Positions 38,024 to 56,669 of a DNA stretch of 64,000 nt are shown here, piece by piece. The DNA is from Methanothrix sp. (GTDB lineage: Archaea; Halobacteriota; Methanosarcinia; Methanotrichales; Methanotrichaceae). The position numbers and the translations under genes were made by a program. Where the stretch lies: the NCBI GenBank assembly GCA_963682135.1, contig OY821645.1, forward strand, positions 2,240,001-2,304,000, written 5' to 3'. The notes below the pieces were generated by a model. The model saw only the letters and a list, made by a program, of their open reading frames with translations. It searched no databases and was not told where the DNA came from. Every line of letters begins with the position of its first letter. The stretch's first letter is position 1.

Positions 38024-41000
38024 ATGTCATATCGCAATAAGGCGATAGCTTTAGTAATGCTTTTATCGCTGGTTTACCTGCTGGCGGGATTGTCGCTGGG
38101 TGCAGTCGCAGCGCCGCCCAGCCTCACGATAAACCAGCTCGTAACCTCTGAACAGACTGTGACCCTTAAAGCTCCTTCAGGAGATTACTACTACCAATGG
38201 ACCGCTGATACTGGCGGCGCTACCATTGGTCAGGCGACGACGCAGAGTTTTTCGTTTAAAGCTCCCCTGGTAACTCAGGATGAGGGCTCGAAGGCGGTCA
38301 CAATCTCGCTATACATAAGAACCAAAGAAGGAGGTTGTGTCAACCAAACGAGCACCACGATCAATGTCTATTCCCTGCCGGTTTGCGGCATAAGCGGACC
38401 CATATCAGTTGGTCCCTATGAGACTGCCACATACAGTTATTCGGGTGGAACCAGCGGCAAAACGACATTCGTGTGGAATGTTGACGGCAAGAATATCGAT
38501 GGAGCCACCGGGCCAAGTGTTGCCATAGATTGGACCAAATACAGTCTTGTCAATCACACCATCGGCATGACATTGACCAAGGATTACTCTGATGTGGCCC
38601 CCGGTTCAACCAATCCGTTCCGCAGCATAAGCTGTACTTTCCAGACAAATGTGACTTACACCACCGGGATGCAGGTAACCAAGACCCCCTCGGCAGCTTT
38701 TGCAGCGGTAGGCCAGTCAGTTATCTATACCTACACGGTCCAAAATACAGGGACAATAGGCATAAACTCACTGACACTGAGCGATGACAAGCTTGGCACT
38801 CTTACGCCTGCTGCCAAGACGATCCTGCCAGGAGCATCTACAACTGCAACTGCGACCTATATCATAAAAGAGAGCGATCTGCCAGGACCTCTGACCAATA
38901 CAGTAACCGTATCTGGTGTCGAGGACAGAACCAACAAGCCGGTCAGTGCCAAAGCTAATGCTACCGTGGCTCTGACCTATAACGCAGCCTTAAATCTGAC
39001 CAAAGTGCCCTCCTCCGCCACCGCCAAGGTGGGAGATACGGTGACCTACAAGTTCACGGTTACAAATACCGGAAACGTCACAATAAAGGGCTTGAACCTG
39101 ACGGACGATAAGCTGGGAACCATAAAGACCGACAAGACTGAACTTGCTCCGGGAGCTGTTGCAACAGCTTCGGCAACCCATGTCGTATTGGAAAGCGATC
39201 TGCCCGGACCTCTGACCAACGTGGCCACCATAGAGGGCACAGATATCCAAGATCAACCGGTTACGGCGACGGCCACAGCATCGATTGCGCTGACCTACAC
39301 ATCCGGTCTGGCTGTGACTAAGAAGCCATCCTCCAATACTGCAAAAATTGGTGATACTGTAACTTACCAGTTCAGCGTAACGAACAACGGTACGGTCACC
39401 ATAAATGGATTGGCGCTCAATGATGACAAGCTGGGAATCATCACTCTGGACAAGGCATCTCTGCCACCAGGCGAGACCGCCACAGGATCGGCAACGCACA
39501 CCATCATCGAGACCGACCTGCCCGGCCCTCTGACCAATATCGCCACGGCCACAGGCACGGACAGCCAGGGAGTGGCAGTCACAGGCCAAGCAACCGCCGC
39601 GGTCCAGCTTACTTACACTTCCACTTTGCAGGTGACCAAGACTCCATCCACCACAAAGGCAAACGTGGGAGAGACCATAACCTACCAATTCCAGGTTAAG
39701 AACACTGGATCAGTCACTATCAATGCACTGGCTCTGAACGACGATAAGCTTGGGGGCGTCACTCTGGACAGGGAGTCCCTTCTGCCTGGCGAGAGTGCCA
39801 ACGGTACGGCAACACATGTCGTTGTAGAAGGCGATTTGCCCGGACCTCTGACCAATGTCGCCACAGCCACGGGAACAGACCGCCTGGGTACTACGGTTAC
39901 AACAACGGCTACGGCTACAGTCCAGCTTACCTATACCGCTGCTCTGCAGGTGACCAAGATTCCATCTGCGAACACGGCGGCAATCGGTGAGACTGTAACC
40001 TACCAGTACTCCATCGTGAACACTGGAAACGTAACCGTAAATGCTCTGACCCTGACGGATGACAAGCTCGGCGACATAACCCTCAATACCGCCCAGCTGG
40101 CTCCCGGCGGGACAGCCACGGGATCAGCGACGCACACCATCGTCGAGAAGGACCTGCCCGGACCTCTGACCAACATTGCAACGGCTAAAGCAACTGACAG
40201 CCAGAATAAGCCGGTTACAGCAACGGCAACGGCGACGGTCCAGCTTACCTACACGTCCAGCATGAGCGTGACCAAGGTGCCTTCAAGCACAACGGCCGGC
40301 GTGGGAGAACCGGTAACATACACCTACACCGTCAGTAACACGGGCACTATTAACATCACCGGGTTGTCTCTAAGCGACGACAAACTCGGCAAGATAACCA
40401 TAGACAGGACTTCACTGGCCCCCGGAGAGAGCGCAATCGGCACTATTACTTATACTGTGCTCGAAGGCGATCTGCCCGGACCGCTCACCAATATCGTAAC
40501 CGCTACGGCTACGGATAGCTTGAAGCAGCCGATTACTGCAACGGCTACCGCAACAGTTGCTCTGACCTATACGGCCAGCCTGGACGTTGCCAAGGTGCCT
40601 TCAAGCACAACCGCCGTCGTAGGAGAACAGGTAACATACACCTACACCGTTACCAACACGGGTAACGTAACCCTCAAAGGTCTGGCTCTGAGCGACGACA
40701 AGATCGGCACCATAACACCAGCCAAGACCACCATCGCTTCGGGAGAGACAACTACCGCAACGGGAACATACACCGTGCTCGAAGGCGATCTGCCCGGACC
40801 GCTCACTAACGTAGTCACAGTAACGGCCACGGACAGCCAGAACCAGCCGGTCACAAATACGGCAACAGCTACGGTCACCCTGACCTATACGGCCAGCATG
40901 AGCGTGACCAAGGTGCCTTCAAGCACAACAGCCGGCGTAGGAGAACAGGTAACATACACCTACACCGTAAAGAACACGGGTAATGTAACCCTCAATGCTC

Positions 41001-43702
41001 TGGCTCTGAGCGATGACAAGATCGGAACTATAACTCCTGGCCAGACAACTCTCGCTTCGGGAGAGACCACTACTGCAACAGGCATATACACCGTGCTCGA
41101 AGGCGATCTGCCCGGACCGCTCACCAACATCGTCACAGTTTCGGCCACGGACAGCCAGAACCAGGCCGTAACAGCTACGCAGACAGCCACAGTCGCCCTG
41201 ACTTATACCACCAAACTGGAAGTTGCCAAGGTGGCGTCGACGGGAACTGCAGCCGTAGGATCAACCATAACCTATAGCTACACAGTCAAGAACTCCGGAA
41301 CGGTCACCATAAATGGGCTCTCCATGAATGATGACAAGCTCGGCGACATAACCCTGGACGCGAATACACTCGCACCGGGTGCAACTGCCAATGGAACGGC
41401 AACTCACCTCGTAGTGGAAGCCGATCTGCCTGGACCTATTATCAATACGGTAATTGTGACAGGTACAGACAGCCAGAACAATCCTGCCACGGCAACAGCA
41501 ACGGCCACGGTCCAGCTTACCTATACCGCTGCTCTGCAGGTGACCAAGACTCCATCATCCAACACTGCTGCTGTGGGTGAGACTGTAACCTACCAGTATT
41601 CCGTTGTGAACACTGGAAACGTAACCGTAAATGCTCTGACCCTGACAGATGACAAGCTCGGCGATATTACCATGAGTGCCGCCTCGCTGGCTCCGGGAGC
41701 GACGGCCACAGGATCAGCGACGCACACCATCGTCGAGACTGACCTGCCCGGACCTCTGACCAACACGGCAACGGCTAAAGCAACTGACAGCCAGAATAAG
41801 CCGGTTACAGCAACGGCAACGGCGACGGTAACCCTGACCTACACGGCCACGATGGAAGTTACCAAGTCTCCGTCCGCAGCTTCGGCCAGAGTAGGAGAGA
41901 GCATAACCTACACCTACACTGTAAGAAACACGGGAACAGTCTCCATCAAAGGACTGAAGTTGAGTGACGACAAGCTAAAGGAAATCAAAGTAGATAAAGA
42001 TACATTGGTACCGGGCGATACGGCTACCGGAACGGCTACCTACACTATCCTCGAGACGGATCTGCCAGGACCGTTGACAAATGTAGTCACGGTGACGGCA
42101 ACGGATAGCGCCGGGAAGGCAATGACGAGCGAAGCTCGGGCCTCTGTGGAATTAACCTATTCTGCAAGCATGGAGATCGTCAAGACGCCATCCTCCACCA
42201 CGGCCAAAGTGGGAGATACCGTAACCTACTCCTATACAGTGAGGAACACAGGAGAAGTAACTCTCAATGGTCTGGCGCTCACCGACGACAAGCTTGGCGC
42301 TATCAAGATCAACGCCAATACGCTGGCTGCCGGCGAAACGGCGACGGGCACATCAACGCACATCGTAGTTGAGGGCGATCTGCCCGGACCTTTGACCAAC
42401 ATCGTCACAGGTACGGCTACGGACACCCAGGGACAGCCGATTACCGCCACGGCAACAGCAACGGTCGCATTGACCTACACAGCCGCCCTGAACGTTACCA
42501 AGGAGCCATCTGCCAAAACCGCAGCCATCGGTGACACGGTAACCTACAGGTTCACTGTGAAGAACACAGGAAGCGTTACGGTTAACGGTCTGACCCTGAC
42601 GGATGACAAGCTAGGCACCATAAATCCACAACAGGCCACACTTGCACCGGGTGAGACCACGACCGCCTCGATGGATCACATAGTTGTCGAGTCGGATCTG
42701 CCCAGCCCCTTAACCAACGTGGTTACCGCTGCGGCCAATGACATCCTGGGGCAGCCGGTCACATCTACCGCCACTGCTACTGTAGCTCTGACCTACACGG
42801 CAACTGTAGAGATGACAAAGGTTGCATCTCCCACTTCAGCAAAGGTGGGTGAGAAGGTAACTTACACCTACACCATAAGGAATAGCGGAAAGGTCACAAT
42901 CAGCGAACTGGTACTGACGGACGATAAGCTGGGTAGCGTTACTCTGGGCCAAAGATCGGTAGCACCAGGAGGAACGGTAACCGGAAGTGCAACTTACACC
43001 ATCGACGTGAAAGATGTACCGGGACCCATAATCAACACCGCACTACTTGCGGGCAAGGATCCGGCAGGCGGTAGCGTCAGCACCAGGGCCACGGCAACCG
43101 TGACCATAACCAGGGATGCCATTACTCCGACGGTGACATGCGTTGCAGCCAACAGCGACGGCACTTTCACCGCATTCTTTGGCTACAACAATCCCAACAG
43201 CTATGCAGTCACCATAGAGGTAGGAAAGGATAACCAGTTCACGCCACCCCCAGACAGCCGGGGACAGCCCACCACCTTTGAACCGGGAAGCCAGACAGCC
43301 GTCTTTACGGTCGATTCCAAGGGCGAATCTCTAGTATGGCATCTGGAGGGTACCATTGCAGAAGCCAACAAGAACTCAGGCGGATGCTCCATGGCTTCTT
43401 GCGCCTTGGACGGGCCGACTGCCCTCTGCCAGAATAAGGAGGAGACTTACAGCTACACTGCAAAAGAGGATGCAAAGTTCAAGCATAACTACGACTGGTC
43501 CATGGATGACAAACCCCTGGGCTCCGGCAAGAGCATCACCATCTCCGGCAGCAAATTCGAGATGGGAGAGCATAAGCTCAAGCTGAAGGTCAGCAGGAAT
43601 TACAGAGAAAAAGCCTGGTCGAGTGCAGAGTGCAGCATGGCTGTAAAGGTCATACCCGAACCATCCGCGGACATATCCATGGACGAGGAGGGAGGTGACT
43701 AA
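38024..43702 (+). CDS. Giant secreted surface protein with 14 tandem DUF11/DUF7507-like Ig domains
   Basis: Signal peptide; 106-aa (318-bp) repeats L.VTK.PS....VG..VTYTYTV.NTG.V....L.L.DDKLG...E.DLPGPLTN. Confidence 0.9.
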   Translation: MSYRNKAIALVMLLSLVYLLAGLSLGAVAAPPSLTINQLVTSEQTVTLKAPSGDYYYQWTADTGGATIGQATTQSFSFKAPLVTQDEGSKAVTISLYIRTKEGGCVNQTSTTINVYSLPVCGISGPISVGPYETATYSYSGGTSGKTTFVWNVDGKNIDGATGPSVAIDWTKYSLVNHTIGMTLTKDYSDVAPGSTNPFRSISCTFQTNVTYTTGMQVTKTPSAAFAAVGQSVIYTYTVQNTGTIGINSLTLSDDKLGTLTPAAKTILPGASTTATATYIIKESDLPGPLTNTVTVSGVEDRTNKPVSAKANATVALTYNAALNLTKVPSSATAKVGDTVTYKFTVTNTGNVTIKGLNLTDDKLGTIKTDKTELAPGAVATASATHVVLESDLPGPLTNVATIEGTDIQDQPVTATATASIALTYTSGLAVTKKPSSNTAKIGDTVTYQFSVTNNGTVTINGLALNDDKLGIITLDKASLPPGETATGSATHTIIETDLPGPLTNIATATGTDSQGVAVTGQATAAVQLTYTSTLQVTKTPSTTKANVGETITYQFQVKNTGSVTINALALNDDKLGGVTLDRESLLPGESANGTATHVVVEGDLPGPLTNVATATGTDRLGTTVTTTATATVQLTYTAALQVTKIPSANTAAIGETVTYQYSIVNTGNVTVNALTLTDDKLGDITLNTAQLAPGGTATGSATHTIVEKDLPGPLTNIATAKATDSQNKPVTATATATVQLTYTSSMSVTKVPSSTTAGVGEPVTYTYTVSNTGTINITGLSLSDDKLGKITIDRTSLAPGESAIGTITYTVLEGDLPGPLTNIVTATATDSLKQPITATATATVALTYTASLDVAKVPSSTTAVVGEQVTYTYTVTNTGNVTLKGLALSDDKIGTITPAKTTIASGETTTATGTYTVLEGDLPGPLTNVVTVTATDSQNQPVTNTATATVTLTYTASMSVTKVPSSTTAGVGEQVTYTYTVKNTGNVTLNALALSDDKIGTITPGQTTLASGETTTATGIYTVLEGDLPGPLTNIVTVSATDSQNQAVTATQTATVALTYTTKLEVAKVASTGTAAVGSTITYSYTVKNSGTVTINGLSMNDDKLGDITLDANTLAPGATANGTATHLVVEADLPGPIINTVIVTGTDSQNNPATATATATVQLTYTAALQVTKTPSSNTAAVGETVTYQYSVVNTGNVTVNALTLTDDKLGDITMSAASLAPGATATGSATHTIVETDLPGPLTNTATAKATDSQNKPVTATATATVTLTYTATMEVTKSPSAASARVGESITYTYTVRNTGTVSIKGLKLSDDKLKEIKVDKDTLVPGDTATGTATYTILETDLPGPLTNVVTVTATDSAGKAMTSEARASVELTYSASMEIVKTPSSTTAKVGDTVTYSYTVRNTGEVTLNGLALTDDKLGAIKINANTLAAGETATGTSTHIVVEGDLPGPLTNIVTGTATDTQGQPITATATATVALTYTAALNVTKEPSAKTAAIGDTVTYRFTVKNTGSVTVNGLTLTDDKLGTINPQQATLAPGETTTASMDHIVVESDLPSPLTNVVTAAANDILGQPVTSTATATVALTYTATVEMTKVASPTSAKVGEKVTYTYTIRNSGKVTISELVLTDDKLGSVTLGQRSVAPGGTVTGSATYTIDVKDVPGPIINTALLAGKDPAGGSVSTRATATVTITRDAITPTVTCVAANSDGTFTAFFGYNNPNSYAVTIEVGKDNQFTPPPDSRGQPTTFEPGSQTAVFTVDSKGESLVWHLEGTIAEANKNSGGCSMASCALDGPTALCQNKEETYSYTAKEDAKFKHNYDWSMDDKPLGSGKSITISGSKFEMGEHKLKLKVSRNYREKAWSSAECSMAVKVIPEPSADISMDEEGGD
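38650..43110 (+). repeat. 14 x 318-bp coding tandem repeat (boundaries approximate)
   Basis: Recurrent GATCTGCCCGGACC and GACAAGCT motifs at a 318-bp period. Confidence 0.85.
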
Positions 43703-44051
43703 GAAGCTGAGAGTATTCTTCATGCACCTGGTGGCTGCTCCGCCCCAGGTGTAACCATTTTTATTAATTTTATGCACTAAATAAATATAAATTTTTAATC
43801 TGCATTAAATCCTATCCGGAAAAAAGATACTGCCGCCGGATGACGAGCCGTCATTGGCTTCCAGGTTTCAATCCTTGTTTTTGTGGAACTCACCCACGGA
43901 GCTCAAGGGGCCGGATTATCCGATCAATATTATCGCGTTTCAATCCTTGTTTTTGTGGAACTCGCCCCCGGAGTTCATGCAGATTCGTGCAGAAGAGGCG
44001 CACCGTCCGGTTTCCCATGGAAAACCACATAAATCATAATCAGGAGGCGAC

Positions 44052-45377
44052 CTATTCACCTCCCCCGGATGGCCTTTTCTGGCCGGGTTTTGTTATAGAA
44101 ATGGCTCCAAGCTCACGCATAAGAGCATTCTTCCTGCTGCCCTCTTTCAGGTGATAAAAGGCGTCCACAATTGCAGCTACTCTATCCGTCAATTGCTCAT
44201 CCTGAAATGAAGGTGCCTGGCAGGACTTATCCTGACTTGCTCCTCTCGATCTGCATTCACCTTCCTGATACAGCTCCTGGTTGATAAGAAGATGATGAAT
44301 GAGACAGATAAGCTTCCTGGCTACAGCAATAGTGGCTACATTTGGCTCCTTCTTTTTGACCAACCTCTGGAAGAACCTGGAAAGCCGTGTATTTTTCATT
44401 CTTCCGATGGTCTTTGCAGCCTGAACCAGCATAACTCTAATGTACTTGGAACCCTTCTTTGTAATTCCGCATTTTTTCTTTTTGCCCGCAGATTCGCTTT
44501 CTCCAGGATTGAGGCCGCACCATTTAGCGAGTTGGTCAGGTGTCTGAAAATCACGGTAATTTCCAATTTCAGACAATATGGCCGATGCGGATACGAATCC
44601 AATTCCTGGAATTGACATGACGATGGCCAGGTCTTTGCTCTTCTGCTGAATCTTTTTCAGGACCTCATGGCTCAGCTTTTCTATTTTGGATTCGAGATTA
44701 TCAATGAATTCCAGGGCATCTATTAAGAGCATTCTGTTTGTATCATCAAGACTTCTTTCAAGTGCTACCCTAATTTCGTCTTGCTTTTTCCTTATTTTTC
44801 CGGATGGGATGCCTTTCAAGATCTTCTCGATGGACTTCTTTTTTGCCAGACCGTCCAAAATATATCTGCCGGATTTGCAGAATATGTCGTCCATGCAAGA
44901 ACTGAGTTTGATCCCGCATGATGAAAGGTATTTGTGTATCCGATTCCGGAACTGAGTTCGTGTCTTGACATATCCGGACCTGGCTCGAGTTAGAGTCCTG
45001 AGATCTCGGTCTTCATTGGTAAATACCCTAGAGCGCTTGATTTGATTGTTCAGGCAAAGAGATGCAATCCGCTTTGAGTCTTTTGAATCAGATTTGTCGT
45101 TGGGAATAGTCTTTATCTGCAACGGATTGGCAACGATTGTATCTATGGTTTTGCTCAATGCATCATAGATCGGTATCCAATAGACTCCAGTAGCCTCAAA
45201 TGCCACCTGTTCGCATTTGTTGGCTACCAGCCATTTGCGAAATTTCCTAAGTTCAGTTTTCGTTGTCCCAAAATCCATTCGAATCGGTTGAAAATCATCG
45301 CCTGTTATTGTTGCCACGATCAAATCTTTATGGACATCTGCACCGCAAACTCTATCTCTTCGTTTTTTCATATACAT
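44052..45377 (-). CDS. IS110-family (DEDD) transposase/recombinase, copy A
   Basis: GADVHKD, AFEATG.YW, KSD.KD, SIPGIG, GLNPGESESAG (catalytic Ser loop), VARKL; start at 45377 or 45371. Confidence 0.96.
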   Translation of the reverse strand: MYMKKRRDRVCGADVHKDLIVATITGDDFQPIRMDFGTTKTELRKFRKWLVANKCEQVAFEATGVYWIPIYDALSKTIDTIVANPLQIKTIPNDKSDSKDSKRIASLCLNNQIKRSRVFTNEDRDLRTLTRARSGYVKTRTQFRNRIHKYLSSCGIKLSSCMDDIFCKSGRYILDGLAKKKSIEKILKGIPSGKIRKKQDEIRVALERSLDDTNRMLLIDALEFIDNLESKIEKLSHEVLKKIQQKSKDLAIVMSIPGIGFVSASAILSEIGNYRDFQTPDQLAKWCGLNPGESESAGKKKKCGITKKGSKYIRVMLVQAAKTIGRMKNTRLSRFFQRLVKKKEPNVATIAVARKLICLIHHLLINQELYQEGECRSRGASQDKSCQAPSFQDEQLTDRVAAIVDAFYHLKEGSRKNALMRELGAISITKPGQKRPSGGGE

Positions 45378-45604
45378 TTCTGCCTGGTATGGGCAGATGA
45401 TGTTTCCCTGATATGAGATAATTTCCCATACGCGTTCTATGACGCAGTCCCGTATTCGGGGGATCTTGGCTCGTTTCAATCGCGGGATCAGCCGTCCCAT
45501 AAACTTGTCAGCCTTCACTGCCCATAACCACATTTAACGTGAACGGATTACAATATGTGGTTTTCCATCCGTCACGTGTGAGCCTCTGCCTGGGGCGCAT
45601 GGGC
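45378..45604 (-). ncRNA. Candidate bridge RNA region of IS110 copy A
   Basis: About 230-nt 5' non-coding end with hairpins, a 9-nt match to the target repeat (45473-45481) and matches to the donor junction; RNA ends unknown. Confidence 0.6.
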
Positions 45605-46305
45605 GTTTCAATCCTTGTTTTTGTGGAACTCGCCCTCGGAGGATACCGATTTCAGTTATATCAAGTGTTTCACAAAGAAGTTTCAATCCTTGTTTTTGTG
45701 GAACTCGCCCTCGGAGTTTCTGCTATCCTGGCCGTCGCCGGGTAGTTCCTGAGTTTCAATCCTTGTTTTTGTGGAACTCGCCCTCGGAGATGTCTATCCT
45801 CATTCCGGTCCTACGAGCAAAGTCTTGTTTCAATCCTTGTTTTTGTGGAACTCGCCCTCGGAGGCAGAAGATGAAAAGATAGAGTACCGGATGAACGAGT
45901 TTCAATCCTTGTTTTTGTGGAACTCGCCCTCGGAGCAAACTACGGTCGATGCTATCAAGGCCAAGACTGAGTTTCAATCCTTGTTTTTGTGGAACTCGCC
46001 CTCGGAGCCAGGATGAAGCAACTTGACCTTTCCAGCTTCAAAAGGTTTCAATCCTTGTTTTTGTGGAACTCGCCCTCGGAGTCATTTAAGCCACCGCCTC
46101 TGTCCACTCATAGTTCAGTTTCAATCCTTGTTTTTGTGGAACTCGCCCTCGGAGGCCAAGATTACCCTCAAGGATGCAGCAGAGGTGGGTTTCAATCCTT
46201 GTTTTTGTGGAACTCGCCCTCGGAGGGACTGGACAATCAAGGGAAGCGGTGCCGTCACCGCCAGTTTCCCATGGAAAACCACATAAATCATAATCAGGAG
46301 GCGAC

Positions 46306-47631
46306 CTATTCACCTCCCCCGGATGGCCTTTTCTGGCCGGGTTTTGTTATAGAAATGGCTCCAAGCTCACGCATAAGAGCATTCTTCCTGCTGCCCTCTT
46401 TCAGGTGATAAAAGGCGTCCACAATTGCAGCTACTCTATCCGTCAATTGCTCATCCTGAAATGAAGGTGCCTGGCAGGACTTATCCTGACTTGCTCCTCT
46501 CGATCTGCATTCACCTTCCTGATACAGCTCCTGGTTGATAAGAAGATGATGAATGAGACAGATAAGCTTCCTGGCTACAGCAATAGTGGCTACATTTGGC
46601 TCCTTCTTTTTGACCAACCTCTGGAAGAACCTGGAAAGCCGTGTATTTTTCATTCTTCCGATGGTCTTTGCAGCCTGAACCAGCATAACTCTAATGTACT
46701 TGGAACCCTTCTTTGTAATTCCGCATTTTTTCTTTTTGCCCGCAGATTCGCTTTCTCCAGGATTGAGGCCGCACCATTTAGCGAGTTGGTCAGGTGTCTG
46801 AAAATCACGGTAATTTCCAATTTCAGACAATATGGCCGATGCGGATACGAATCCAATTCCTGGAATTGACATGACGATGGCCAGGTCTTTGCTCTTCTGC
46901 TGAATCTTTTTCAGGACCTCATGGCTCAGCTTTTCTATTTTGGATTCGAGATTATCAATGAATTCCAGGGCATCTATTAAGAGCATTCTGTTTGTATCAT
47001 CAAGACTTCTTTCAAGTGCTACCCTAATTTCGTCTTGCTTTTTCCTTATTTTTCCGGATGGGATGCCTTTCAAGATCTTCTCGATGGACTTCTTTTTTGC
47101 CAGACCGTCCAAAATATATCTGCCGGATTTGCAGAATATGTCGTCCATGCAAGAACTGAGTTTGATCCCGCATGATGAAAGGTATTTGTGTATCCGATTC
47201 CGGAACTGAGTTCGTGTCTTGACATATCCGGACCTGGCTCGAGTTAGAGTCCTGAGATCTCGGTCTTCATTGGTAAATACCCTAGAGCGCTTGATTTGAT
47301 TGTTCAGGCAAAGAGATGCAATCCGCTTTGAGTCTTTTGAATCAGATTTGTCGTTGGGAATAGTCTTTATCTGCAACGGATTGGCAACGATTGTATCTAT
47401 GGTTTTGCTCAATGCATCATAGATCGGTATCCAATAGACTCCAGTAGCCTCAAATGCCACCTGTTCGCATTTGTTGGCTACCAGCCATTTGCGAAATTTC
47501 CTAAGTTCAGTTTTCGTTGTCCCAAAATCCATTCGAATCGGTTGAAAATCATCGCCTGTTATTGTTGCCACGATCAAATCTTTATGGACATCTGCACCGC
47601 AAACTCTATCTCTTCGTTTTTTCATATACAT
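46306..47631 (-). CDS. IS110-family transposase/recombinase, copy B
   Basis: Translation identical to copy A. Confidence 0.96.
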   Translation of the reverse strand: MYMKKRRDRVCGADVHKDLIVATITGDDFQPIRMDFGTTKTELRKFRKWLVANKCEQVAFEATGVYWIPIYDALSKTIDTIVANPLQIKTIPNDKSDSKDSKRIASLCLNNQIKRSRVFTNEDRDLRTLTRARSGYVKTRTQFRNRIHKYLSSCGIKLSSCMDDIFCKSGRYILDGLAKKKSIEKILKGIPSGKIRKKQDEIRVALERSLDDTNRMLLIDALEFIDNLESKIEKLSHEVLKKIQQKSKDLAIVMSIPGIGFVSASAILSEIGNYRDFQTPDQLAKWCGLNPGESESAGKKKKCGITKKGSKYIRVMLVQAAKTIGRMKNTRLSRFFQRLVKKKEPNVATIAVARKLICLIHHLLINQELYQEGECRSRGASQDKSCQAPSFQDEQLTDRVAAIVDAFYHLKEGSRKNALMRELGAISITKPGQKRPSGGGE

Positions 47632-47858
47632 TTCTGCCTGGTATGGGCAGATGATGTTTCCCTGATATGAGATAATTTCCCATACGCGTTCTATGACGCA
47701 GTCCCGTATTCGGGGGATCTTGGCTCGTTTCAATCGCGGGATCAGCCGTCCCATAAACTTGTCAGCCTTCACTGCCCATAACCACATTTAACGTGAACGG
47801 ATTACAATATGTGGTTTTCCATCCGTCACGTGTGAGCCTCTGCCTGGGGCGCATGGGC
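47632..47858 (-). ncRNA. Candidate bridge RNA region of IS110 copy B
   Basis: Same sequence as copy A; GTTTCAATC at 47727-47735. Confidence 0.6.
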
Positions 47859-48189
47859 GTTTCAATCCTTGTTTTTGTGGAACTCGCCCTCGGAGATTGA
47901 ACGATAATGTCACGGATGACAGTGGAAATGGTAAGTTTCAATCCTTGTTTTTGTGGAACTCGCCCTCGGAGTTCGGGGCGATATACTGGAGCTTTCCGGG
48001 TCGGAGGGTTTCAATCCTTGTTTTTGTGGAACTCGCCCTCGGAGCCTGGAACGGTCCGGCCAGTGCGGTGTCTGAGCTGTGTTTCAATCCTTGTTTTTGT
48101 GGAACTCGCCCTCGGAGAGGGAACATTTCGTTGAAGCCGACAAATTGATTGAGTTTCAATCCTTGTTTTTGTGGAACTCGCCCTCGGAG

Positions 48190-48400
48190 AGCGGCTTTTT
48201 TTCGTCCTTTTCCCTGTTTCTCATCGTCAAACCGGCCTTTTCTCACCCTCCTTAAATCATGAGTAGAATTTATTAGAGGGCTTATAAATTCATTCCGGCA
48301 GGTGGGCCAAAAAATAGGCTTCCTGCCAAAAAACAGATAATGCATACCTATTTCTGTTTTGCATATGCACCGTGACTTTTGTAAACCTATTTCTCATCTG
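48190..48400 (-). promoter_or_regulatory. CRISPR leader with archaeal TATA box
   Basis: AT-rich non-coding DNA beside the conserved end of the array; minus-strand TTTATAAG near 48281-48289. Confidence 0.7.
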
Positions 48401-48541
48401 CAAATATCCTCTTGGTAGAAAAAGGTTTTTATGGAAAGGCTTCCATAAAACATACTCAATGTGCGAGAGTTCGAATCCAGTGAATTACTCCATGCGCAAG
48501 ATTTTCTTCGCAGATGACTCGACTCTGATCTCAATATATTA

Positions 48542-49216
48542 TTAGCCTTTGTTTTCCGCAAGCTTCAGCCCAACAACCGCCCCGTAACCTCTGGAGACAG
48601 ACTTGCCCAGCCCCAGGAGGTCTGGAATGGCGAAGGTTGTGGTGAACTCGCCTCGTATTCCCGTTACCTTTGTTCCCTTCAGCAGGCAGATCTCGTCCTG
48701 CATCCTGCCAACCTCCAGCCGAATGTGCTCTTTGGCCACGTAGCCCAGCCCCTTGGAGGCGGATAGGATGTTGCCCACCAGTATTCTTCTCAGCAGATCT
48801 CTTCTTTCCTCTCTGTTTGCATTTATGTATTTGGGATAGTTTTCCTGGCTCAGCGCCAACCAGGGCGTGGCGAAACTGTAGCTGTGAATCACCTCAGAGC
48901 AGCCGAACTCCTCACTCTTTAGGGTAATGCCGCGCTCCATGATGCTGTATTTGCTATCGCCCAATTTGATCTCATCGAATTTGTCGTAGATCTCCTTCAG
49001 GACATCTGCCCCCTCGTTGATGCCCAGCACGAGGGGACTATCTTCCAGCATCTTGTACTGGATGAGCGGATACTTGTAGATCAGCTTGTCTGTCACATGC
49101 TGGTGTAGCAGTGCATGCTCATTGAAGCTGGTGGCAAAGAAGCCGCGCAGTTTGGCGGCGTCCCCGTGCATGGGCGCGTCCGAGTGCAGGGTGAGGCGGA
49201 GGATTTTGAGGATCAT
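48542..49216 (-). CDS. cas6: CRISPR endoribonuclease Cas6 (Cas6b type)
   Basis: KLRGFF, IYKYPLIQYK, F.TPWLAL.QENY, LVGNILS..KGL, GLGKSVSRGYG glycine loop. Confidence 0.93.
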   Translation of the reverse strand: MILKILRLTLHSDAPMHGDAAKLRGFFATSFNEHALLHQHVTDKLIYKYPLIQYKMLEDSPLVLGINEGADVLKEIYDKFDEIKLGDSKYSIMERGITLKSEEFGCSEVIHSYSFATPWLALSQENYPKYINANREERRDLLRRILVGNILSASKGLGYVAKEHIRLEVGRMQDEICLLKGTKVTGIRGEFTTTFAIPDLLGLGKSVSRGYGAVVGLKLAENKG

Positions 49217-49240
49217 GGTCGTCAAGGATTTTCGTTTCGT

Positions 49241-49486
49241 CTAAACTTCGGCATTTGTTTCAATGGCAATCGTACGTGCCACTGAACCACAACTTTCAAC
49301 AGGCACTTCTTCGCCGCGGGCAATCATGCAAGCTACGAAGCCTTCAATGGCCTCCCTTGCCATCACCAGCGCCTCTTCAATCGTTCGCCCGAATGTCAGA
49401 CAACCTGGGAGAGATGGTACAATCACCGTGTAAGTTCCATCTTCCTCTTTTCGGAGCAGAACTTCGTAACGCAATGTCTCCATCAT
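49241..49486 (-). CDS. hicB: HicB-family antitoxin-like protein (no adjacent hicA)
   Basis: EEDGTYTVIVPSLPGCLTFGRTIEEALVMAREAIE. Confidence 0.88.
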   Translation of the reverse strand: MMETLRYEVLLRKEEDGTYTVIVPSLPGCLTFGRTIEEALVMAREAIEGFVACMIARGEEVPVESCGSVARTIAIETNAEV

Positions 49487-49598
49487 AGTAGTCTCCTATT
49501 TTATGTTGATGTTGCGGCTTTGCGGTCCTCCCGCGCATGAGCGCGTGCGAGGGCGGGAACGGGGGGGAGGATTTTTAGGAACCTGAGAATCTCCCGGT

Positions 49599-52094
49599 TT
49601 AGATAATCATGGAGCCCCCTCCGGCTCCGTCACGCATGAATCCAGTCTCCTTATCATAATAGTTGGGCAGCTCATCTCTTGAAATGTAGCCCATCTCAGA
49701 TTCATCCGCGACCAGGTTATGAGCGTATTTCTCTGGTGCGGAGATCACGTACTCGCTGAAATCTTTCCTTATAGCCAGTTTCTTTCTCATTTGTTCTTTT
49801 ATGTCCTTCTCCATTTTCAAATCTTGATATTTCTTCCAGATTTCTGCAGCGGTTATATCAATCTCCACAAATACATTTACCTTGGGATAGTCGTCTTCAA
49901 TGAGCTTGAACTTCTTGCTAAGATCTTGGAAAGACAACTGCGCCAGACAGGCCAGGTTTTCTTTTGACTTCTCGTCACCCATGCCACTCTTGACCGACTT
50001 GAAGTACTTGTTATTCAACTCCAAAATAGCTGATTCTCGAATTGAATCATTAATCGGTTTTAGGATGTCCAGGGTTTTGCTCATCAAGAACGGATCGTAG
50101 ATATATCTATAAAATTCTTTTCGATCATCTCTTAAAATAAAAATTGATACCGTGCCCTTTTCTGATTTAGCTGAGTTCCTGTTGCACCTGCCTGCCACCT
50201 GGTTTATGGAGTCCATTGGAGCGAAGTCTCGGTAGACTGTGTGCGCATCGATGTCTACGCCAGCCTCGATCAATTGAGTGCTCACAATGACCTTTCTTTT
50301 TCGTGAAGATTCATCGGCTTTTTTTCCCAAAGACCCCTTGATACTTCGTATCCGCTCCAGCCTCTCTTTTGGAATCACATTTGTAGATAGGTAAAAATTC
50401 TCCGTGTTCTCCAACTCCAGGCTCTTGATAAAATGGTAAACATTGTTGGCCGAGTTAATGGTGTTGAGAACAATCAAGAAATCTTTTTCGGGATTGTTGG
50501 TTAGATCTTCTTGTATGATAGAATTGAATTCCTCCAGGGTCAAAGCCGTCTCAATTCTGGGAATTAGTCTAATCCTATCCAGGTCCCTGAAATACTCTTC
50601 TTTATTCTGAGTTATCTCTTTTATCTCTCCCAATGCCTCATCAAAGATAAGCGGCTGCGTTGCCGTAACGAAGATGACATAGCTATTGAACTTCTCGCAA
50701 AGCATTTTCGTTGCGTCGTGAATCAATTGCCAGTACTGGTGAGGAACTGCCTGTACTTCGTCCAGAATAATTATGGCGTTTGCTAGCTTATTGAATTTGC
50801 GCAGTAACTTATTTCGGTTAGAAAAAAGGGTATAGAAGAACTGCCAGAATGTTGTTACTATTATCTCTGCGTTCCAGCCCTCCAGGAGCAGCAAGCTTTC
50901 GTCTGCCTTATAAAATTCTTCGTCCTTATCCTCAATTTTGTAGTTTACATCTGCCAGATGATGGTGCTTGAGAAGAAGCCTGGAATCCTTAAGTTTTCCC
51001 CCCTGGCTGACTACATCTTCAAAGACATCGTAATTTTGATCTATTATGCTCAGAAAGGGCAGAGCGTAGATTATCCTTGGCGTGAAATCTTTCTTATTCT
51101 TCAATCGGTCTCTCAGCTTTAGGGCAAAAGAAAGAGAAGTCAAAGTCTTGCCGGTGCCGGTTGGGACATTCAACGAGAGAATTCTGTTGTCCAGGTTCCA
51201 ATCCCTAACTCCTATCATTGTATCTTCGTAGATCTGATTCCTGAGATTATTAATATTATTTCTGTCCGAAGTGAACCCTTTCCGTTCTCTATACAGATCT
51301 ACCAGGTCTGCTGGAAGGTCTAAACGATCTGTATCTAGATCTTTGTCTCCTAGCCCCGCGTCGGTCTTGTCTGCATCCAAGAGGGCGGAGTAGAGAAACT
51401 GAGTTATGAAATATGGGTAAAGATCGGTCTTTTCACGAAGATACCTTATCATTCGCTCATCTTTTCTACTGATTTCCTTGCACGCATTTTGCAAAATATA
51501 GTTAGAAATATCATTAATATCGATTTTTAAATTTATCGTTCCTTCTCGAAAAAGCAATGCAAGAATTTGGTTTATCTCGCCTTTATCCATAGACTCAATT
51601 TGCTCTTTCGCTACTTGCAGAATTTTCTCCCTCTCCACATCCACTTCACTTATCTCGCCCATGGCGTTCATGAGGTTTCCGTGATGCTTCTTCACGGCCA
51701 GGAAAGATAATATTGGCAGAAAATTCGCTAATTCACCATTTCTTCCCGATTGGCTAAGGTATTCTTTGATTACCGCGTAAGTAAAGAAAGCAGAGAGCCG
51801 GCCATGATGGGTGCTTTCCTTGGCTTTGAGGGACTTCTTTTTTCGCTCATCTTTCTCAATAATGTATTCCTGGAAAAATCTCGTAGCTTTTCCCAGGTCG
51901 TGCGTTACACCTATGAGATAAGCAGCGTCTGCCAGGAGATCCTTATCATCTATGTTTAGAGATTTGTCTGTTACTGTTTTTCTGCTCAATTGCCCCACTT
52001 TTCTCAAGTGATCCACCAAAAGCCTGATTCGACCATCCTGCGAATCCGGGCGAGACTTGAGCTTAAAGGAATACGATTCGCTCTCGCTTTTCAT
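49599..52094 (-). CDS. cas3: CRISPR helicase/nuclease Cas3
   Basis: HDLGKA, KHHG, DADK, PTGTGKT, LDEVQ, TAT, STQLIEAGVD, QVAGRCNR. Confidence 0.96.
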   Translation of the reverse strand: MKSESESYSFKLKSRPDSQDGRIRLLVDHLRKVGQLSRKTVTDKSLNIDDKDLLADAAYLIGVTHDLGKATRFFQEYIIEKDERKKKSLKAKESTHHGRLSAFFTYAVIKEYLSQSGRNGELANFLPILSFLAVKKHHGNLMNAMGEISEVDVEREKILQVAKEQIESMDKGEINQILALLFREGTINLKIDINDISNYILQNACKEISRKDERMIRYLREKTDLYPYFITQFLYSALLDADKTDAGLGDKDLDTDRLDLPADLVDLYRERKGFTSDRNNINNLRNQIYEDTMIGVRDWNLDNRILSLNVPTGTGKTLTSLSFALKLRDRLKNKKDFTPRIIYALPFLSIIDQNYDVFEDVVSQGGKLKDSRLLLKHHHLADVNYKIEDKDEEFYKADESLLLLEGWNAEIIVTTFWQFFYTLFSNRNKLLRKFNKLANAIIILDEVQAVPHQYWQLIHDATKMLCEKFNSYVIFVTATQPLIFDEALGEIKEITQNKEEYFRDLDRIRLIPRIETALTLEEFNSIIQEDLTNNPEKDFLIVLNTINSANNVYHFIKSLELENTENFYLSTNVIPKERLERIRSIKGSLGKKADESSRKRKVIVSTQLIEAGVDIDAHTVYRDFAPMDSINQVAGRCNRNSAKSEKGTVSIFILRDDRKEFYRYIYDPFLMSKTLDILKPINDSIRESAILELNNKYFKSVKSGMGDEKSKENLACLAQLSFQDLSKKFKLIEDDYPKVNVFVEIDITAAEIWKKYQDLKMEKDIKEQMRKKLAIRKDFSEYVISAPEKYAHNLVADESEMGYISRDELPNYYDKETGFMRDGAGGGSMII

Positions 52095-52773
52095 TCTCTA
52101 CCTCCCAAAGTTCCTTTGCCTTGGCTTTGATGCACTCTCCGTTCCTTTCAAACAGAATCTCGCTGTAGTCAGTTACTTCTCTTGCTTCTCCCATCTCGCC
52201 TGGCATCACTTCTGAGAAGTATTCCTTTCCTTCCTCGAAATCCGGCTCAAGAAGGCATTTACCAGGCACCACGCTATCGATATCCTGGACATCTTCGCCT
52301 GAATTATGTAGCCCAAACTCACCAATGAATTTAAAGTTGCAGATGAGCTCGCTTAGTCCAAGACACGGAGTATACACCGACTGGTGACTGATGAGCAAGT
52401 CTTTAAGCTTTTTATACAATTGCTCATCGGAGTGAGAGAAATAAATTCTATAATTCGGATCTTTGACGAACTCGAATCTGATCTGGGTTCTGTTTTTGAT
52501 CAGATGCATCTTAAATGCGCTCTTGGTATCAATCAGGTTCTCTCCAATCCTCACTTTTTTCACGGGCGCCATAATTTTGCAGCCTATTTGTGCATCAACC
52601 TTAAAGAAGTGCCTGAAATACTCCGCTTTATCCAGACCGACAATGGCCCCGATCAGCCCAGAGAGAGCCGTTCGGGGTGGGAAAGAATAGGTGAGTGGAG
52701 AGCTGGTAGAGTAATTCTTCCTAAAATGGGCGTAGTCCCCCCACACATCGAATACTATTACTCTCTCCGGCAT
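52063..52773 (-). CDS. cas5: Cas5, type I-B (Cas5h)
   Basis: FDVWGDYAHFRK..STSSPLTY.FPPRTAL.GLIGAI.G; YTPCLG. Confidence 0.93.
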   Translation of the reverse strand: MPERVIVFDVWGDYAHFRKNYSTSSPLTYSFPPRTALSGLIGAIVGLDKAEYFRHFFKVDAQIGCKIMAPVKKVRIGENLIDTKSAFKMHLIKNRTQIRFEFVKDPNYRIYFSHSDEQLYKKLKDLLISHQSVYTPCLGLSELICNFKFIGEFGLHNSGEDVQDIDSVVPGKCLLEPDFEEGKEYFSEVMPGEMGEAREVTDYSEILFERNGECIKAKAKELWEVENEKRERIVFL

Positions 52774-52780
52774 CTGGACC

Positions 52781-53809
52781 TCAAAACGCTATTGGCTTTA
52801 TGGCTATGCCGGTAGCTGCTGCCAATCCTTCAATTGGGAAACCGGCCCCTTCTTTGCAGAACTTAATTCTGTCGTCCACGCAAATCTCAATATCCTTGAT
52901 TGAGCCCTTCTCAGCAGCAAGTTTATTGACCAGCTCCGATATCTCCAGCTGGTAATCTATGGTGTCACGAATATTCTCATGAGGCATCTCGGTTACCAGT
53001 TTCAGCATCTTATCCAGATCCCCGATGTGATAACTCTCTTTGCTGTAATTCACCTTAAGGAGCAACCTGGGAACCTGTCCTGCTTTAGATCTGGAAATCA
53101 GGCTCTTGGTTCCATTCCAGATGCCATCCAGCAAAAGTTTTACATCATCTTCTGAGAGACCGGTGTGCTTAGCAGCGTTCTCATTTATTATACCATAGAA
53201 TGATATTAGTGAATATGGCAGAAAATCTTCTTCTCTGAACGTTGCTCTTGTAGATTTATCATCAGATGCAAAAGCTCCTTTACCCCTAAAATGCTTCATC
53301 GAGACACGATGAAGAGATCGACCGATCTTGAACTGTACTGGTCCCGTAAAGGTCAAAGATCCTTTTTCATCTTTTTCTTTATTGGTATCTTTATCGTTTT
53401 CAGTTTTTTTTCCGGGCTTTACTTTAATCTCCAAAGGTATTGTAGCACCAAATAATCTAACATCCAAGCAATTAGCTAAAATTCTATCAGATATAATTTT
53501 TCTTTGTTGTTCAAATGATAATTCTTTGATATCTACAGTTTCATCTTTTAAGAAGTCCATTGCTCTTTTCTTTGCTGTTTGCATATTGCCGCTATCATCC
53601 TTTATTTCTCGAATAAAGATCTCTTTGCCCTTAAAGTCATACAGAAAATCTCGAATAGTTCTCTTTAATCGGACATCTGTTACAATATTTACACCAGTTT
53701 CCTCGTCCATCCTAGGCTTGTTTTCATCCAGAGGATCCCCATTTGGATTTCCATCTCTTATGTCGTAGATGAAAATAATCTCTGACCTGTTCTTTATAGT
53801 TTCGCTCAT
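52781..53809 (-). CDS. cas7: Cas7, type I-B (Csh2)
   Basis: NPNGDP, VTDVRLKRTIRD, DVRLFGA, TGPVQF, SRSKAGQ.PRLL. Confidence 0.95.
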   Translation of the reverse strand: MSETIKNRSEIIFIYDIRDGNPNGDPLDENKPRMDEETGVNIVTDVRLKRTIRDFLYDFKGKEIFIREIKDDSGNMQTAKKRAMDFLKDETVDIKELSFEQQRKIISDRILANCLDVRLFGATIPLEIKVKPGKKTENDKDTNKEKDEKGSLTFTGPVQFKIGRSLHRVSMKHFRGKGAFASDDKSTRATFREEDFLPYSLISFYGIINENAAKHTGLSEDDVKLLLDGIWNGTKSLISRSKAGQVPRLLLKVNYSKESYHIGDLDKMLKLVTEMPHENIRDTIDYQLEISELVNKLAAEKGSIKDIEICVDDRIKFCKEGAGFPIEGLAAATGIAIKPIAF

Positions 53810-55706
53810 TCTTGTGTCTCCCCTTCAATCTCTGGCTCATCTTCTGTTGAATTCTTGAACAACTTATGCAAATCCATTCCCAAAACAAAATAGAAGCTTA
53901 GCTCGTCATCTCCTTCTTTCCAATTTATTCCAGACGAGACAAAGTGATTTGCAATGATCTCTTCCAGTTGCCGATAATAATTCTTGTCGTACTCTTCCAG
54001 CTTAATTTGAATTTTTGGAAGGAGTCTCTTGATCAGTGCTTCATTCATCTTCAAGCCATGTAATTTATTGCGAAATGGAGTTGCATTTTTGTCCCTCCAC
54101 TGTATGTTAAGGAGCTTCTGAGTCAATACCCCTTCCAAAAAGGTCGCCTTCTTAGAATCGCTATTGAAGAACGCCTTATTTGCTTCGAAGAACCTCTCAA
54201 TACGTAGCTCTAATGGGAGGCTTTCCAGCTCTTCGATGCGAAGAACCTCACGTTCCTGTTCATTCATGTCTTTCATCTCCGCGTTCTTTGCTTTGAAAAG
54301 AATTAGCTTCTCTATGTAGTGCAAGAGCAAGAAGCCATTCAATGAAGTTATCTTAGTAGAATAACCCTTTATGAACGCCTCTCTTACCTTACTCATTATA
54401 AAATCTATCAACAAATAATAGCTGATTTGATCTCCAACAAATATCTTGTCAACCATTTCCAAGAATATTTTATCGAAAGTTCTATTTTTAGATTCGGATG
54501 GGAAGAATCGTCTCAAAACTCCAAAATTAAAAACTAATTGGTGGTTTTCCCTCTGACCTTCGCCTAATATTAAATCATTATAAATTTTGAATATCTCATC
54601 CACTTTTTCTTTGGCTTTGAAAAGTGCTCTTAGTCTTGATGGAAAAATTCCCTCAATTAAAAGGAGGATTCTATATGATGATTGCTCCTTCTTATAAAAT
54701 ATCAAGCTGTTGCTAAAGAAATCTTTTTCATCTTTGACAGCATCACAGCATCAATGATCTTATACTCGTCAGAAGTTATCATGTTCTTATCATCACGATT
54801 TAGTTTTAGCTCCCGTTTTTGTTCCTTCTTACCCAGGATGCTCAATACCTCTTTAAGGAGCTTTTTATCATCTCCTTTAAACGTTATTTTTGGCACGAGG
54901 AGATATCTGAAGCCGTAGAAGCTAAAGTCAAGGTTTTCTTCGATGTACTTCTTTCCAACTTCCAGACGCGTGGCACAATCGAAACATACTGGTGTATTCT
55001 TCCAGGATTCATTGACATCAAATCCACCTGCAATAAATCCAGGCTTATCAAAGGTGTGGAAAGTCCAGGGAATAGCGAAGCCATATACTTCATCTTTGAC
55101 CCCTTTGCAGACTGAGCAGGCAGCATTTTTTCCCCGCGATTCTCCATGAGTCTTCTTAAGAAAATACTTGTCCTTACCCATTCGAAGCAAGATCTTTTCA
55201 AAAATCGGACATTTGCTAAGATAAGAATAGTCTTCGCCATTTTCAAAACCCAGAGTGATAATGGCGTTATCTTTCGAGTCTTTTTCGGAGTATTCCTCTT
55301 GTAGTCCTGCCAAAATTTTATCTCTCTGATCATTGATTGCGATTTTCATCTTTTTGAGGATCTCCTTTTCTTCCTCAGAAATATCATAGCTATCATAATT
55401 CTCGAACCATTTTAGGAATCTATTCTGGAAGGTCTTTTCTAAATTGCCCGCCAATTTGCTCGTGGGTGTCGCGTCAGTGCCATTTGGAGCACCTTTTTTA
55501 TATAAATATAAATTAAAATCTGTCTTAAACTCGTCTCGTATAACACGGCTAAAAGAATACTCCCCGTCCTTTTCGCATAATAATACTAATAATACCCATT
55601 TATATTTTCCATTGCTATTGGGATTCTCGATATATGTGGAAAGCGAATCTACTCCCACACTATTCTTTTGGATGTAGTCCCCGATTTTGCTTACCGCTTC
55701 AATCAC
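53806..55706 (-). pseudogene. cas8b: Cas8b (Csh1) split by a frameshift into 54702-55706 and 53806-54705
   Basis: CSVC, FHTFDKPGF, PVCFDC, FPSR, FLEGVL...LL.IQ, FYFVLG; the 8-bp tandem duplication at 54738-54753 breaks the frame. Confidence 0.9.
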
Positions 55707-55722
55707 CCGAAATCACCATCAA

Positions 55723-56388
55723 TCAAACGCAAATATTCCTGTACGTGCAGTCCACGCACCTGGCCTTCTGCTTTGTCCCATCGGGAAAGTATCCCTTCTG
55801 AATTATCATTAGTATCTCGCGCACAATCTCCTTTGCTTTCTCATAATCTTTTTTCTTGAAGTCTATCTCGGCGACATAATTATTGCTTCTTGTGTAGCAC
55901 ACAAAGCCCCTCTTCACTTCAACCCCGAAGTGTTCCATGATGAGCAGCCCGTAAAGAGCCGCCTGAAATTTGTGCGTCCTGTAAATTGTATTTTTAAACA
56001 TGGCATACTTGTAATCCAAAGGCGCAGCGGTCCCATCATCCAGAAAGAGAACTTCGTCTACCTCTCCCTTGAAGTGATGCTTGTGAGAAGTCAGGTAAAC
56101 CGAAATCTCCTTTCCCGTGCAATTCAACTTCTTTCGGACATAATCCCGGTTTACCTTCTCTCGGATCTCGTGAAGCTCCCTGCCCTTCAAGACCTTGTAG
56201 CGGCGCTCCTCTCTCTGAGCGATGCCCAGGCAGTGCATGAAAAATATGAACCTCGGGCAGAACAGCCACTCCAGCGCATCAGATACCGTGACGAAAATCT
56301 CCTGCGCGGGTGCGCTCCCACTCGCGCCCTCCTGCACCCGCCCGCGCGTGGCCGCGGTCGTGGTCTCTTCCTCTGCCCCCGTCTTCAT
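55723..56388 (-). CDS. cas4: Cas4
   Basis: FCPR, G.VDE, PLDYKY, Q...Y, C..C.Y...C four-cysteine pattern. Confidence 0.93.
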   Translation of the reverse strand: MKTGAEEETTTAATRGRVQEGASGSAPAQEIFVTVSDALEWLFCPRFIFFMHCLGIAQREERRYKVLKGRELHEIREKVNRDYVRKKLNCTGKEISVYLTSHKHHFKGEVDEVLFLDDGTAAPLDYKYAMFKNTIYRTHKFQAALYGLLIMEHFGVEVKRGFVCYTRSNNYVAEIDFKKKDYEKAKEIVREILMIIQKGYFPDGTKQKARCVDCTYRNICV

Positions 56389-56395
56389 TTCGCCC

Positions 56396-56621: not shown

Positions 56622-56669
56622 TAAGCAAAATTATGCGGCGAGATGATACGGGTTTTCAACCGATAGCAT

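Follow-up and report, generated by a model that had tools for sequence, protein, structure and literature searches.

Within a 64,000-nucleotide stretch of a Methanothrix-like genome (the window hereafter; positions 2240001-2304000 of a single 3.04-Mb contig, genome completeness 99.87%), a CRISPR array is split by two identical copies of a 1590-bp insertion sequence of the IS110 family, each of which lies at the same position of a CRISPR repeat. We consider it very probable that the two copies represent independent insertions of an active element, the recombinase of which would be directed to the repeat end by a bridge RNA encoded in the element's left end; this reading draws on the anatomy of the junctions, on the covariation of three left-end segments with their DNA partners and on the distribution of related elements. 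What emerges is a known mechanism, the specialization of IS110 elements on repeated sequences, combined with a new target, the end of the CRISPR repeat, and with some structural departures from the characterized elements. Coordinates are those of the window unless they are said to be genomic.

The array occupies 43865-48189 on the minus strand and comprises 16 repeats of 37 nt (CTCCGAGGGCGAGTTCCACAAAAACAAGGATTGAAAC on that strand), which end in ATTGAAAC and are separated by spacers of 35-39 nt. It is read from right to left, along the minus strand, because all 16 matches to the Rfam family CRISPR-DR7 fall on that strand (at most 34.5 bits, against a gathering score of 37), the two degenerate repeats both stand at the low-coordinate end, and cas6b (48542-49225, minus strand) and the cas operon lie at the other end; the interval from cas6b to the first repeat (48190-48541, minus strand), which contains no repeat, is presumed, from its position, to be the leader. 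Counted from this leader, copy A (44015-45604, minus strand) follows the 14th repeat and copy B (46269-47858, minus strand) the fifth. The two copies are 100% identical across the 1590 bp that separate the flanking GTTTC motifs, and both carry the transposase gene on the minus strand. On the plus strand, each insertion reads spacer, GTTTC, 1590 bp, GTTTCAATCC.. and the full repeat; in the reading direction, an intact repeat is followed by the element, by GAAAC and by a spacer of normal length. This additional GTTTC (GAAAC on the minus strand; 44010-44014 at copy A and 46264-46268 at copy B) is not part of the spacer, because the downstream spacers without it measure 36 and 38 nt, which is within the range of the array. 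Both the upstream and the downstream spacers differ between copies A and B, which excludes a segmental duplication and indicates two separate events; insertions at random would agree in both phase and orientation within a unit of about 73 bp with a probability of approximately 1 in 146. The layout, the common position and orientation, the differing spacers and the conclusion of two independent site-specific events had all been put forward in an earlier note made from the letters of the window, and our reading of the flanks bears them out.

That note had also placed the insertion directly after the terminal GAAAC of the repeat. The position was correct, but a comparison with relatives (29 reference-genome loci and, from metagenomes, the best 80 of 187) moves the crossover into the GAAAC motif itself. 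Family-wide, the left junctions end in NAAAC in 74 of 74 cases and the right junctions begin with GAAAN in 62 of 64, two loci with a misplaced right end (L090 and L109) being left out of the count; the flanking bases are unlike in 21 of the 64 paired junctions, as at the seven sites that combine TAAAC with GAAAG. Because the variable base comes from the target, the shared core is AAA, and the element contributes the C at the left junction and the G at the right one. GTTTC thus combines the G of the right end with the AAA core and with the repeat's last C, and the true ends of copy A differ from the given ones by a 1-nt shift around the core. The repeat end, ..TTG-AAA-C, makes this core resemble a 5-bp duplication; a 5-bp target-site duplication was ruled out, since in relatives the bases at the two junctions are not the same. 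At one locus (L050), the right end is joined to the left end through GAAAC, as expected of a circle or a tandem.

The earlier assignment of the element to the IS110 family is confirmed by its only gene (copy A, 44052-45377; copy B, identical, 46306-47631; both minus strand), listed as an open reading frame (ORF) of 493 codons, the product of which likely starts at MYMKK and comprises 441 residues, judging from the relatives and from the start of the first domain. Its product contains both IS110 domains, the N-terminal DEDD/RuvC-like domain DEDD_Tnp_IS110 (PF01548; 3.1e-21, residues 63-205 of the long ORF) and the C-terminal Transposase_20 domain (PF02371; 3.5e-24), and it matches the IS621 recombinase in the PDB with an E value of 4.6e-6. 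In this alignment, D14, E61, D97 and D100 correspond to D11, E60, D102 and D105 of IS621 (the chain numbering being higher by 2), and S296 corresponds to the catalytic serine within ..YES.. (S243 of the chain, S241 in the paper); together, these are the five residues reported as catalytic by Hiraizumi et al. (PMC11208158). The four acidic residues are also invariant in comparison with a relative of 59% identity that is encoded in the same genome, which additionally carries two more distant IS110 genes.

The gene is preceded by a non-coding left end of 227 nt (45378-45604 in copy A and 47632-47858 in copy B, minus strand), the predicted bridge RNA, and is followed by a right end of 37 nt past the stop codon (44015-44051 in copy A, minus strand), which contains a GGAGG..CCTCC hairpin and a T-rich stretch ending in CCATGG. 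Such an arrangement, with the bridge RNA encoded by the left end, corresponds to the IS110 type; terminal inverted repeats are absent, as a comparison of the ends GCCCATG.. and ..CCATGG shows. We considered and rejected an outward promoter within the right end: the stretch is T-rich, and no TATA-like box is conserved among the relatives. A separate observation concerns the reverse complementarity between a hairpin-loop stretch of the left end (45554-45568 in copy A, minus strand) and the subterminal right end (44017-44031). This complementarity is perfect over 15 nt in the present element, extends over 10-15 nt overall and covaries between clades; it may reflect either an RNA-DNA contact or a protein site.

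The left end also bears on target recognition. One segment of it, GAUUGAAAC, is identical to the final 9 nt of the repeat; as the candidate left target guide GATTGAAAC, it occupies 45473-45481 in copy A and 47727-47735 in copy B (minus strand). Among 113 sequences (four from the present genome and 109 loci), 79 had a recognizable guide and at least 13 nt of flank, the rest being without left-end anchors or start; one locus, L110, was excluded as misparsed. In these 79 elements, the segment in question, which lies before NNGCC, falls into 15 distinct guide classes and tracks the left flank, with a mean agreement of 4.6 of the six variable positions versus 2.27 after shuffling, and none of 20000 shuffles reached the observed value. 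The guide GATTGAAAC occurs with flanks ending in ..ATTGAAAC; the guides CCCTAAAC, GGCTAAAAC, GGCCTAAAC and GACTGAAAC occur with flanks ending in ..CCCTAAAC, ..GGCTAAAAC, ..GGCCTAAAC and ..GACTGAAAC, respectively; and the guide CTAAAAAAAC occurs with ..AAAAAAAC. For IS621 of E. coli, an IS110-group element, the left target guide of the bridge RNA was described as pairing with the bottom strand and hence as being equal to the top strand (PMC11208160 and PMC11208158). By its pattern of covariation, the segment GATTGAAAC behaves as a left target guide in this sense.

A second segment, which lies 5' of the left target guide and ends in UUU, has the properties expected of a right target guide. In copy A this region, ACAAGTTT, lies at 45501-45508 and in copy B at 47755-47762 (minus strand), and its GTTT complements the AAAC of the target. 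In four loci (L105, L016, L077 and L012), the segment is the reverse complement of the right flank over 7-9 nt including the core; the agreement observed was reached by 182 of 20000 shuffles among elements with other guides and by 10 of 20000 within the ATTGAAAC class. Within that class, matching is confined to the base that adjoins the core (36 of 45 pairs), and agreement at the other positions is little above chance, as would be predicted for a target independent of the spacer. The target, (G)ATTG-AAA-C, thus lies wholly inside the repeat end, so that neighboring spacers of any sequence are tolerated. A possible choice of spacer by the right guide was considered and found unconvincing, with T as the first spacer base in 8 of 19 CRISPR sites counted by eye.

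A third segment probably serves the donor. The candidate left donor guide ATGGGAAA (45422-45429 in copy A and 47676-47683 in copy B, minus strand) equals the right end plus the core (CATGG-GAAA), and in its RNA form, AUGGGAAA, it is nearly invariant in the family; the exceptions are compensated, ATGAGAAA being found with the right end CATGA-GAAA in L093, L096 and L097 and ATAGGAAA with CATAG-GAAA in L027. The left end is predicted to fold into a 5' stem-loop and a long hairpin, together with a closing stem that encloses the two loops bearing the guides. A consensus derived from 64 left ends has the target guides on opposite strands of an internal loop, with GGC/GCC closing this loop and a small hairpin as its cap; the second loop holds the donor guide, and compensatory changes occur in 7 of 32 pairs; the fold of the single sequence agrees with the consensus and has a z-score of -2.0.

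From these elements, we propose the following course of events. Transcription of the 227-nt left end would yield a bridge RNA that directs the recombinase to the repeat end. There, the left target guide would recognize the terminal nucleotides of the repeat and the right target guide, a short (A)GUUU, would base-pair with AAAC of the top strand, while the left donor guide in the second loop would match the right end of the circularized element. Recombination at the shared AAA core would then place the element in the sense orientation at the repeat end, leaving the upstream repeat intact and the next spacer preceded by GAAAC alone. Three 100% identical copies in one genome, together with a further array insertion encoding an identical protein (described below), are signs that the element may be active at present.

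The third of these copies (copy C, L001) lies outside CRISPR at genomic positions 2834629-2836218, at a look-alike site with the flanks ..GGATATGAAAC and GAAATCT... When the empty site is rebuilt, the insertion point lies 153 nt into an open frame of 465 codons, the downstream part of which encodes a group-1 glycosyltransferase; copy C may therefore disrupt this gene or its 5' region, and an internal start codon is possible just past the site.

In the wider family, the reference-genome loci carried the titles Methanotrichaceae, Methanothrix, Methanosaeta or Methanosarcinales, with the exception of one uncultured archaeon; in viral contigs, a scan for relatives of the recombinase returned 51 pattern matches, none of which was confirmed. 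We grouped the elements by guide, defined a distinct site by 24 nt of left and 14 nt of right flank, and called a site CRISPR if its 30-nt flank recurred periodically in the locus. Under these definitions, CRISPR arrays hold 28 of the 50 distinct sites with sufficient flank in the ATTGAAAC-guide class (26 in periodic arrays and two matching a verified repeat), against none of the 24 sites of elements with other guides. At least four repeat families have been entered, ending in ..GTTCCACAAAAACAAGGATTGAAAC, ..CCAGAAAACCCGATAGGGATTGAAAC and ..CCCGATGAAAAGGGAATTGAAAC or belonging to the group CCATNNCTG..GTGGC..ATTGAAAC; because ATTGAAAC is common to different repeat families, the clade colonizes arrays of several families within the Methanotrichaceae. 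A metagenome contig (L035) provides a fourth CRISPR insertion of an element with a 100% identical protein, next to another spacer. The tabulated flanks thus support the earlier suggestion of a lineage specialized on CRISPR arrays as a habit, not as an exclusive trait, and they narrow the proposed target from the repeat as a whole to its final 8-9 nt.

Some of the sites merit mention individually. One array of a related genome (G001:C12:111778-115794; L115, L120 and L124) contains three full copies and one that is truncated at its 5' end, and one array insertion (L118, G005:C1:545655) follows a repeat ending in ..CAATGGAAAC instead of ATTGAAAC, a case of mismatch tolerance within an array. A further one of the 50 sites (L056, which we took out of the periodic group after inspection by eye) has its left flank in the guide-coding DNA of another copy, and the right flanks of L007 and L064 show a copy starting just after the guide; the element's own guide-coding DNA therefore serves as a target. 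Sister clades with other guides occupy other recurrent targets (L018, L020-L024, L026, L030 and L108; genomic positions 3001944-3003470, L015, L016, L086 and L104). One such target reads ..CTTCTGGGGCTAAAAC before and GAAACTAATGG.. after the insertion; a conserved GC-rich stretch lies behind it, and one metagenome-assembled genome holds at least eight copies. Another, CCCCACCCTAAA and GGATGGGG, is an imperfect palindrome. The present genome also contains a different repeated sequence, at genomic positions 827057 (minus strand), 2880936 (plus strand) and 2994475 (plus strand), in which GATTGAAAC stands in an identical 60-nt context and none of the sites is occupied.

Several observations weigh against our reading. 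As with copy C, 21 of the 50 sites of the ATTGAAAC class lie outside CRISPR arrays; 8 of these 21 do not contain the full ATTGAAAC, and two (L051 and L109) have repeat-like flanks that are unverified as repeats. Twenty other perfect GATTGAAAC sites of the genome are unoccupied, and the chance that both perfect-site insertions would fall among the 16 of 36 such sites that the array provides is approximately 0.2, so that the case from this genome is weak by itself. As for the predicted RNA, the only candidate for a right donor guide is a weak one, (C/U)GUU near position 66-69 of the left end; Rfam 15 has no family that matches the left end (a scan of 43700-48600 with E values up to 1 returned only CRISPR-DR7); and the order of right target guide, stem-loop and left target guide is the reverse of that in IS621, so that the IS621 geometry may not transfer directly. 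The relatives share ancestry, and covariation was counted by class, of which there are few, not by independent events. Finally, four short-unitig runs of public read data gave no independent confirmation of the assembly.

A first alternative retains the entire mechanism and departs from our reading only in the evolutionary cause: the element would target a mere motif of 8-9 nt, and its presence in arrays would result from mass action, given the dozens of motif copies in an array, and from purifying selection against insertions into genes, not from an adaptation to CRISPR. In its favor are the non-CRISPR sites just described, the position of copy C in or just before a glycosyltransferase ORF and the abundance of the motif, since only 16 of the 132 ATTGAAAC sites in the present genome belong to the array, and since five related whole genomes contain 51-83 periodic ATTGAAAC pairs each, so that arrays supply a large share of the available sites. 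A search for left junctions in these five genomes, which were chosen from loci already carrying the element (four of the five index loci being in CRISPR arrays), returned 14 junctions, 12 of which lie in periodic arrays; three copies share one array, and in one genome the arrays entered belong to two repeat families. After removal of the index copies, 8 of 9 junctions remain in arrays, whereas uniform use of the sites would place approximately 0.4 of the insertions there, a binomial tail of approximately 0.004 under a baseline of about 110 non-CRISPR ATTGAAAC sites per genome that is extrapolated from the present genome (132 - 16 - 3). A targeting preference and selection against insertions into genes would both produce this excess. 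The guide, however, stops exactly at the part that is common to several repeat families, and the right guide asks nothing of the spacer. On the whole, we judge the mere-motif explanation to be rather unlikely.

The repeat end might instead be recognized through protein-DNA contacts, the left-end match being a by-product such as a captured copy of the target. The inverted stretch of 10-15 nt that is common to both element ends could be a protein site in such a scheme. We regard the proposal as very unlikely, because three separate segments of the left end each covary with a different DNA partner, follow the strand pattern of IS621 and sit in loops of a conserved fold.

The array could also have received a single insertion, the second copy being a duplication within the array or an assembly artefact. 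The identity of the copies and the difficulty of assembling arrays are compatible with this, as are the public sequence data that we compared, which consist of Logan contigs (short unitigs) of four runs (X1, X3, X5 and X7). A 93-nt unitig of X1, possibly the source sample, covers 46189-46281 and spans a repeat, a spacer, GTTTC and 13 nt of copy B; other junction pieces were found in X3 (47835-47886) and X5 (47809-47888). None of the pieces in the four runs extends across the whole stretch, represents an empty-site joint or covers a junction with 31 nt to either side, and because the junction pieces reach less than 31 nt into the element, the runs neither prove nor disprove the two copies. The spacers that differ on both sides are nevertheless unlike the outcome of a segmental duplication, the array lies in the middle of no fragmented assembly but on one contig of an almost complete genome, the X1 unitig reaches into copy B, and arrays of other genomes contain two to three full copies each; a single insertion is accordingly highly improbable. 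That the element was instead co-opted by the array, for example through an internal promoter or terminator that alters spacer expression, hardly deserves credence, for the constant sense orientation and the right-end hairpin with its T-rich stretch would suit this idea, but the copies are identical, multiple and found also outside arrays, and nested copies (L056, L007 and L064) and partly decayed ones (L011 and L031) are the behavior of a selfish element.

The bridge RNA system of IS621 (Durrant 2024, PMC11208160; Hiraizumi 2024, PMC11208158) is the closest point of reference for the RNA-guided insertion that we favor. Both elements encode a two-domain DEDD/Ser recombinase in which all five catalytic residues align, have a long non-coding left end before the gene and a short right end, and insert into a repeated host sequence; in both, one guide has the sequence of the left target's top strand together with the core, another complements the core plus the right target, and the left donor guide equals the right end plus the core. 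Unlike IS621, however, which is only distantly similar in sequence, the present element has an AAA core instead of CT, a reversed guide order, no recognized right donor guide and an additional inverted stretch between the left and right ends, and it inhabits an archaeal host, with the CRISPR repeat end as its target instead of a repetitive extragenic palindromic (REP) element. IS110/IS1111 elements that target REP sequences, attC sites and Tn21 ends are known (PMC12288879; 10.64898/2026.03.19.712850), and the present element resembles them in being specialized on a multi-copy, non-coding sequence of the host or of a mobile element; in contrast to theirs, its target gains one site with every spacer acquired and is partly constrained as the crRNA (CRISPR RNA) handle.

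The earlier note knew of no characterized example of an element specialized on CRISPR arrays, and this must be corrected on two counts. In Thermoanaerobacter, several IS110 copies, including a dimer, were reported in 2016 to split one long CRISPR array with the same flanks (PMC4852346), which parallels the several copies per array and the constant flanking sequence described here; the hosts there are bacterial, and neither a guide RNA nor the position within the repeat formed part of that analysis. Among Tn7-like array-targeting transposons of cyanobacteria, 18 of 22 were found in CRISPR arrays (PMC11837452, 2025). These share with the present family a minimal, cargo-free constitution, occasional non-CRISPR sites and several copies per genome, but they encode TnsA-B, TnsC and a TnsD-like DNA-binding protein, and their target, the CRISPR repeat, is chosen by protein, not by an RNA guide; genes for TnsA/TnsB, TnsC or a TnsD-like protein are absent from the 1590-bp element, which holds one IS110-type gene. 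An IS110-family element of Sulfolobus, ISC1229, carries sites bound by Cbp1 (PMC10883916). In the full-text literature covered by our search, in which supplementary tables (such as the natural targets of Durrant 2024) were not included, we found no report that ties an IS110 bridge-RNA guide to a CRISPR repeat.

The insertions should have unequal effects on the neighboring spacers. Because the first base of the element restores the upstream repeat, the upstream crRNA should be unaffected, whereas the spacer that follows each copy, with nothing but GAAAC left of its repeat, should no longer yield a crRNA. The right-end hairpin and T-rich run could, in addition, stop transcription of the distal array. 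The cleavage point of Cas6b lies 8 nt before the repeat end, and ATTGAAAC, the 8 nt recognized by the element, is what we take to be the part of the repeat that becomes the 5' handle of the crRNA. Because the guide fixes the strand, every insertion into an array comes to lie in the sense orientation directly after this 8-nt handle; read-through from the leader would then carry both the bridge RNA and the recombinase message, and a Cas6b cut 8 nt before the element would provide the bridge RNA with a defined 5' end bearing the crRNA handle. One may go further and suppose that the guide has been set to the one part of the repeat that the host can hardly change and that the element lives off CRISPR expression, the array being both a safe harbor and an expression platform; we hold this reading, with the read-through and the Cas6b cut that belong to it, to be rather doubtful. 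If it is true, the array would be a self-renewing harbor, and a guide set to the handle would let the element move between arrays of unrelated repeat families.

Should the guide function as predicted, the element would be a concrete case in which one RNA-guided system, a bridge recombinase, is programmed against the DNA of another, CRISPR, and it would provide a mechanism-level account of the accumulation of IS110 copies in arrays that had appeared in print without an explanation. The confinement of the target to the repeat end would allow a single element to cross repeat families. The guide, core and donor sequences can be read from natural variation, which adds a candidate natural archaeal bridge system, with an AAA core and a reversed guide order, for comparison. 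The questions that arise concern the silencing of the next spacer and of the distal array, the dependence on the leader promoter and on Cas6, and the ways in which a host could escape, given that the handle is constrained.

The remainder of the locus contains type I-B cas genes, cas6b, cas3, cas5b, cas7b, cas8b, cas4 and cas1, at 48542-58782 (minus strand). Here cas8b is represented by two overlapping ORFs on the minus strand (53806-54705 and 54702-55706), which cover positions 1-287 and 309-570 of the TIGR02556 profile and may be due to either a frameshift or a natural split. The 1.3-kb gap between cas4 and cas1 (56389-57672) contains no ORF of at least 110 residues, and cas2 was not located. 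Just past the old end of the array, an ORF of 1892 residues (38024-43702, plus strand) contains at least nine tandem repeats of 318 bp (106 residues) that are 61-77% identical to the reference copy, and its predicted product looks like a surface protein.

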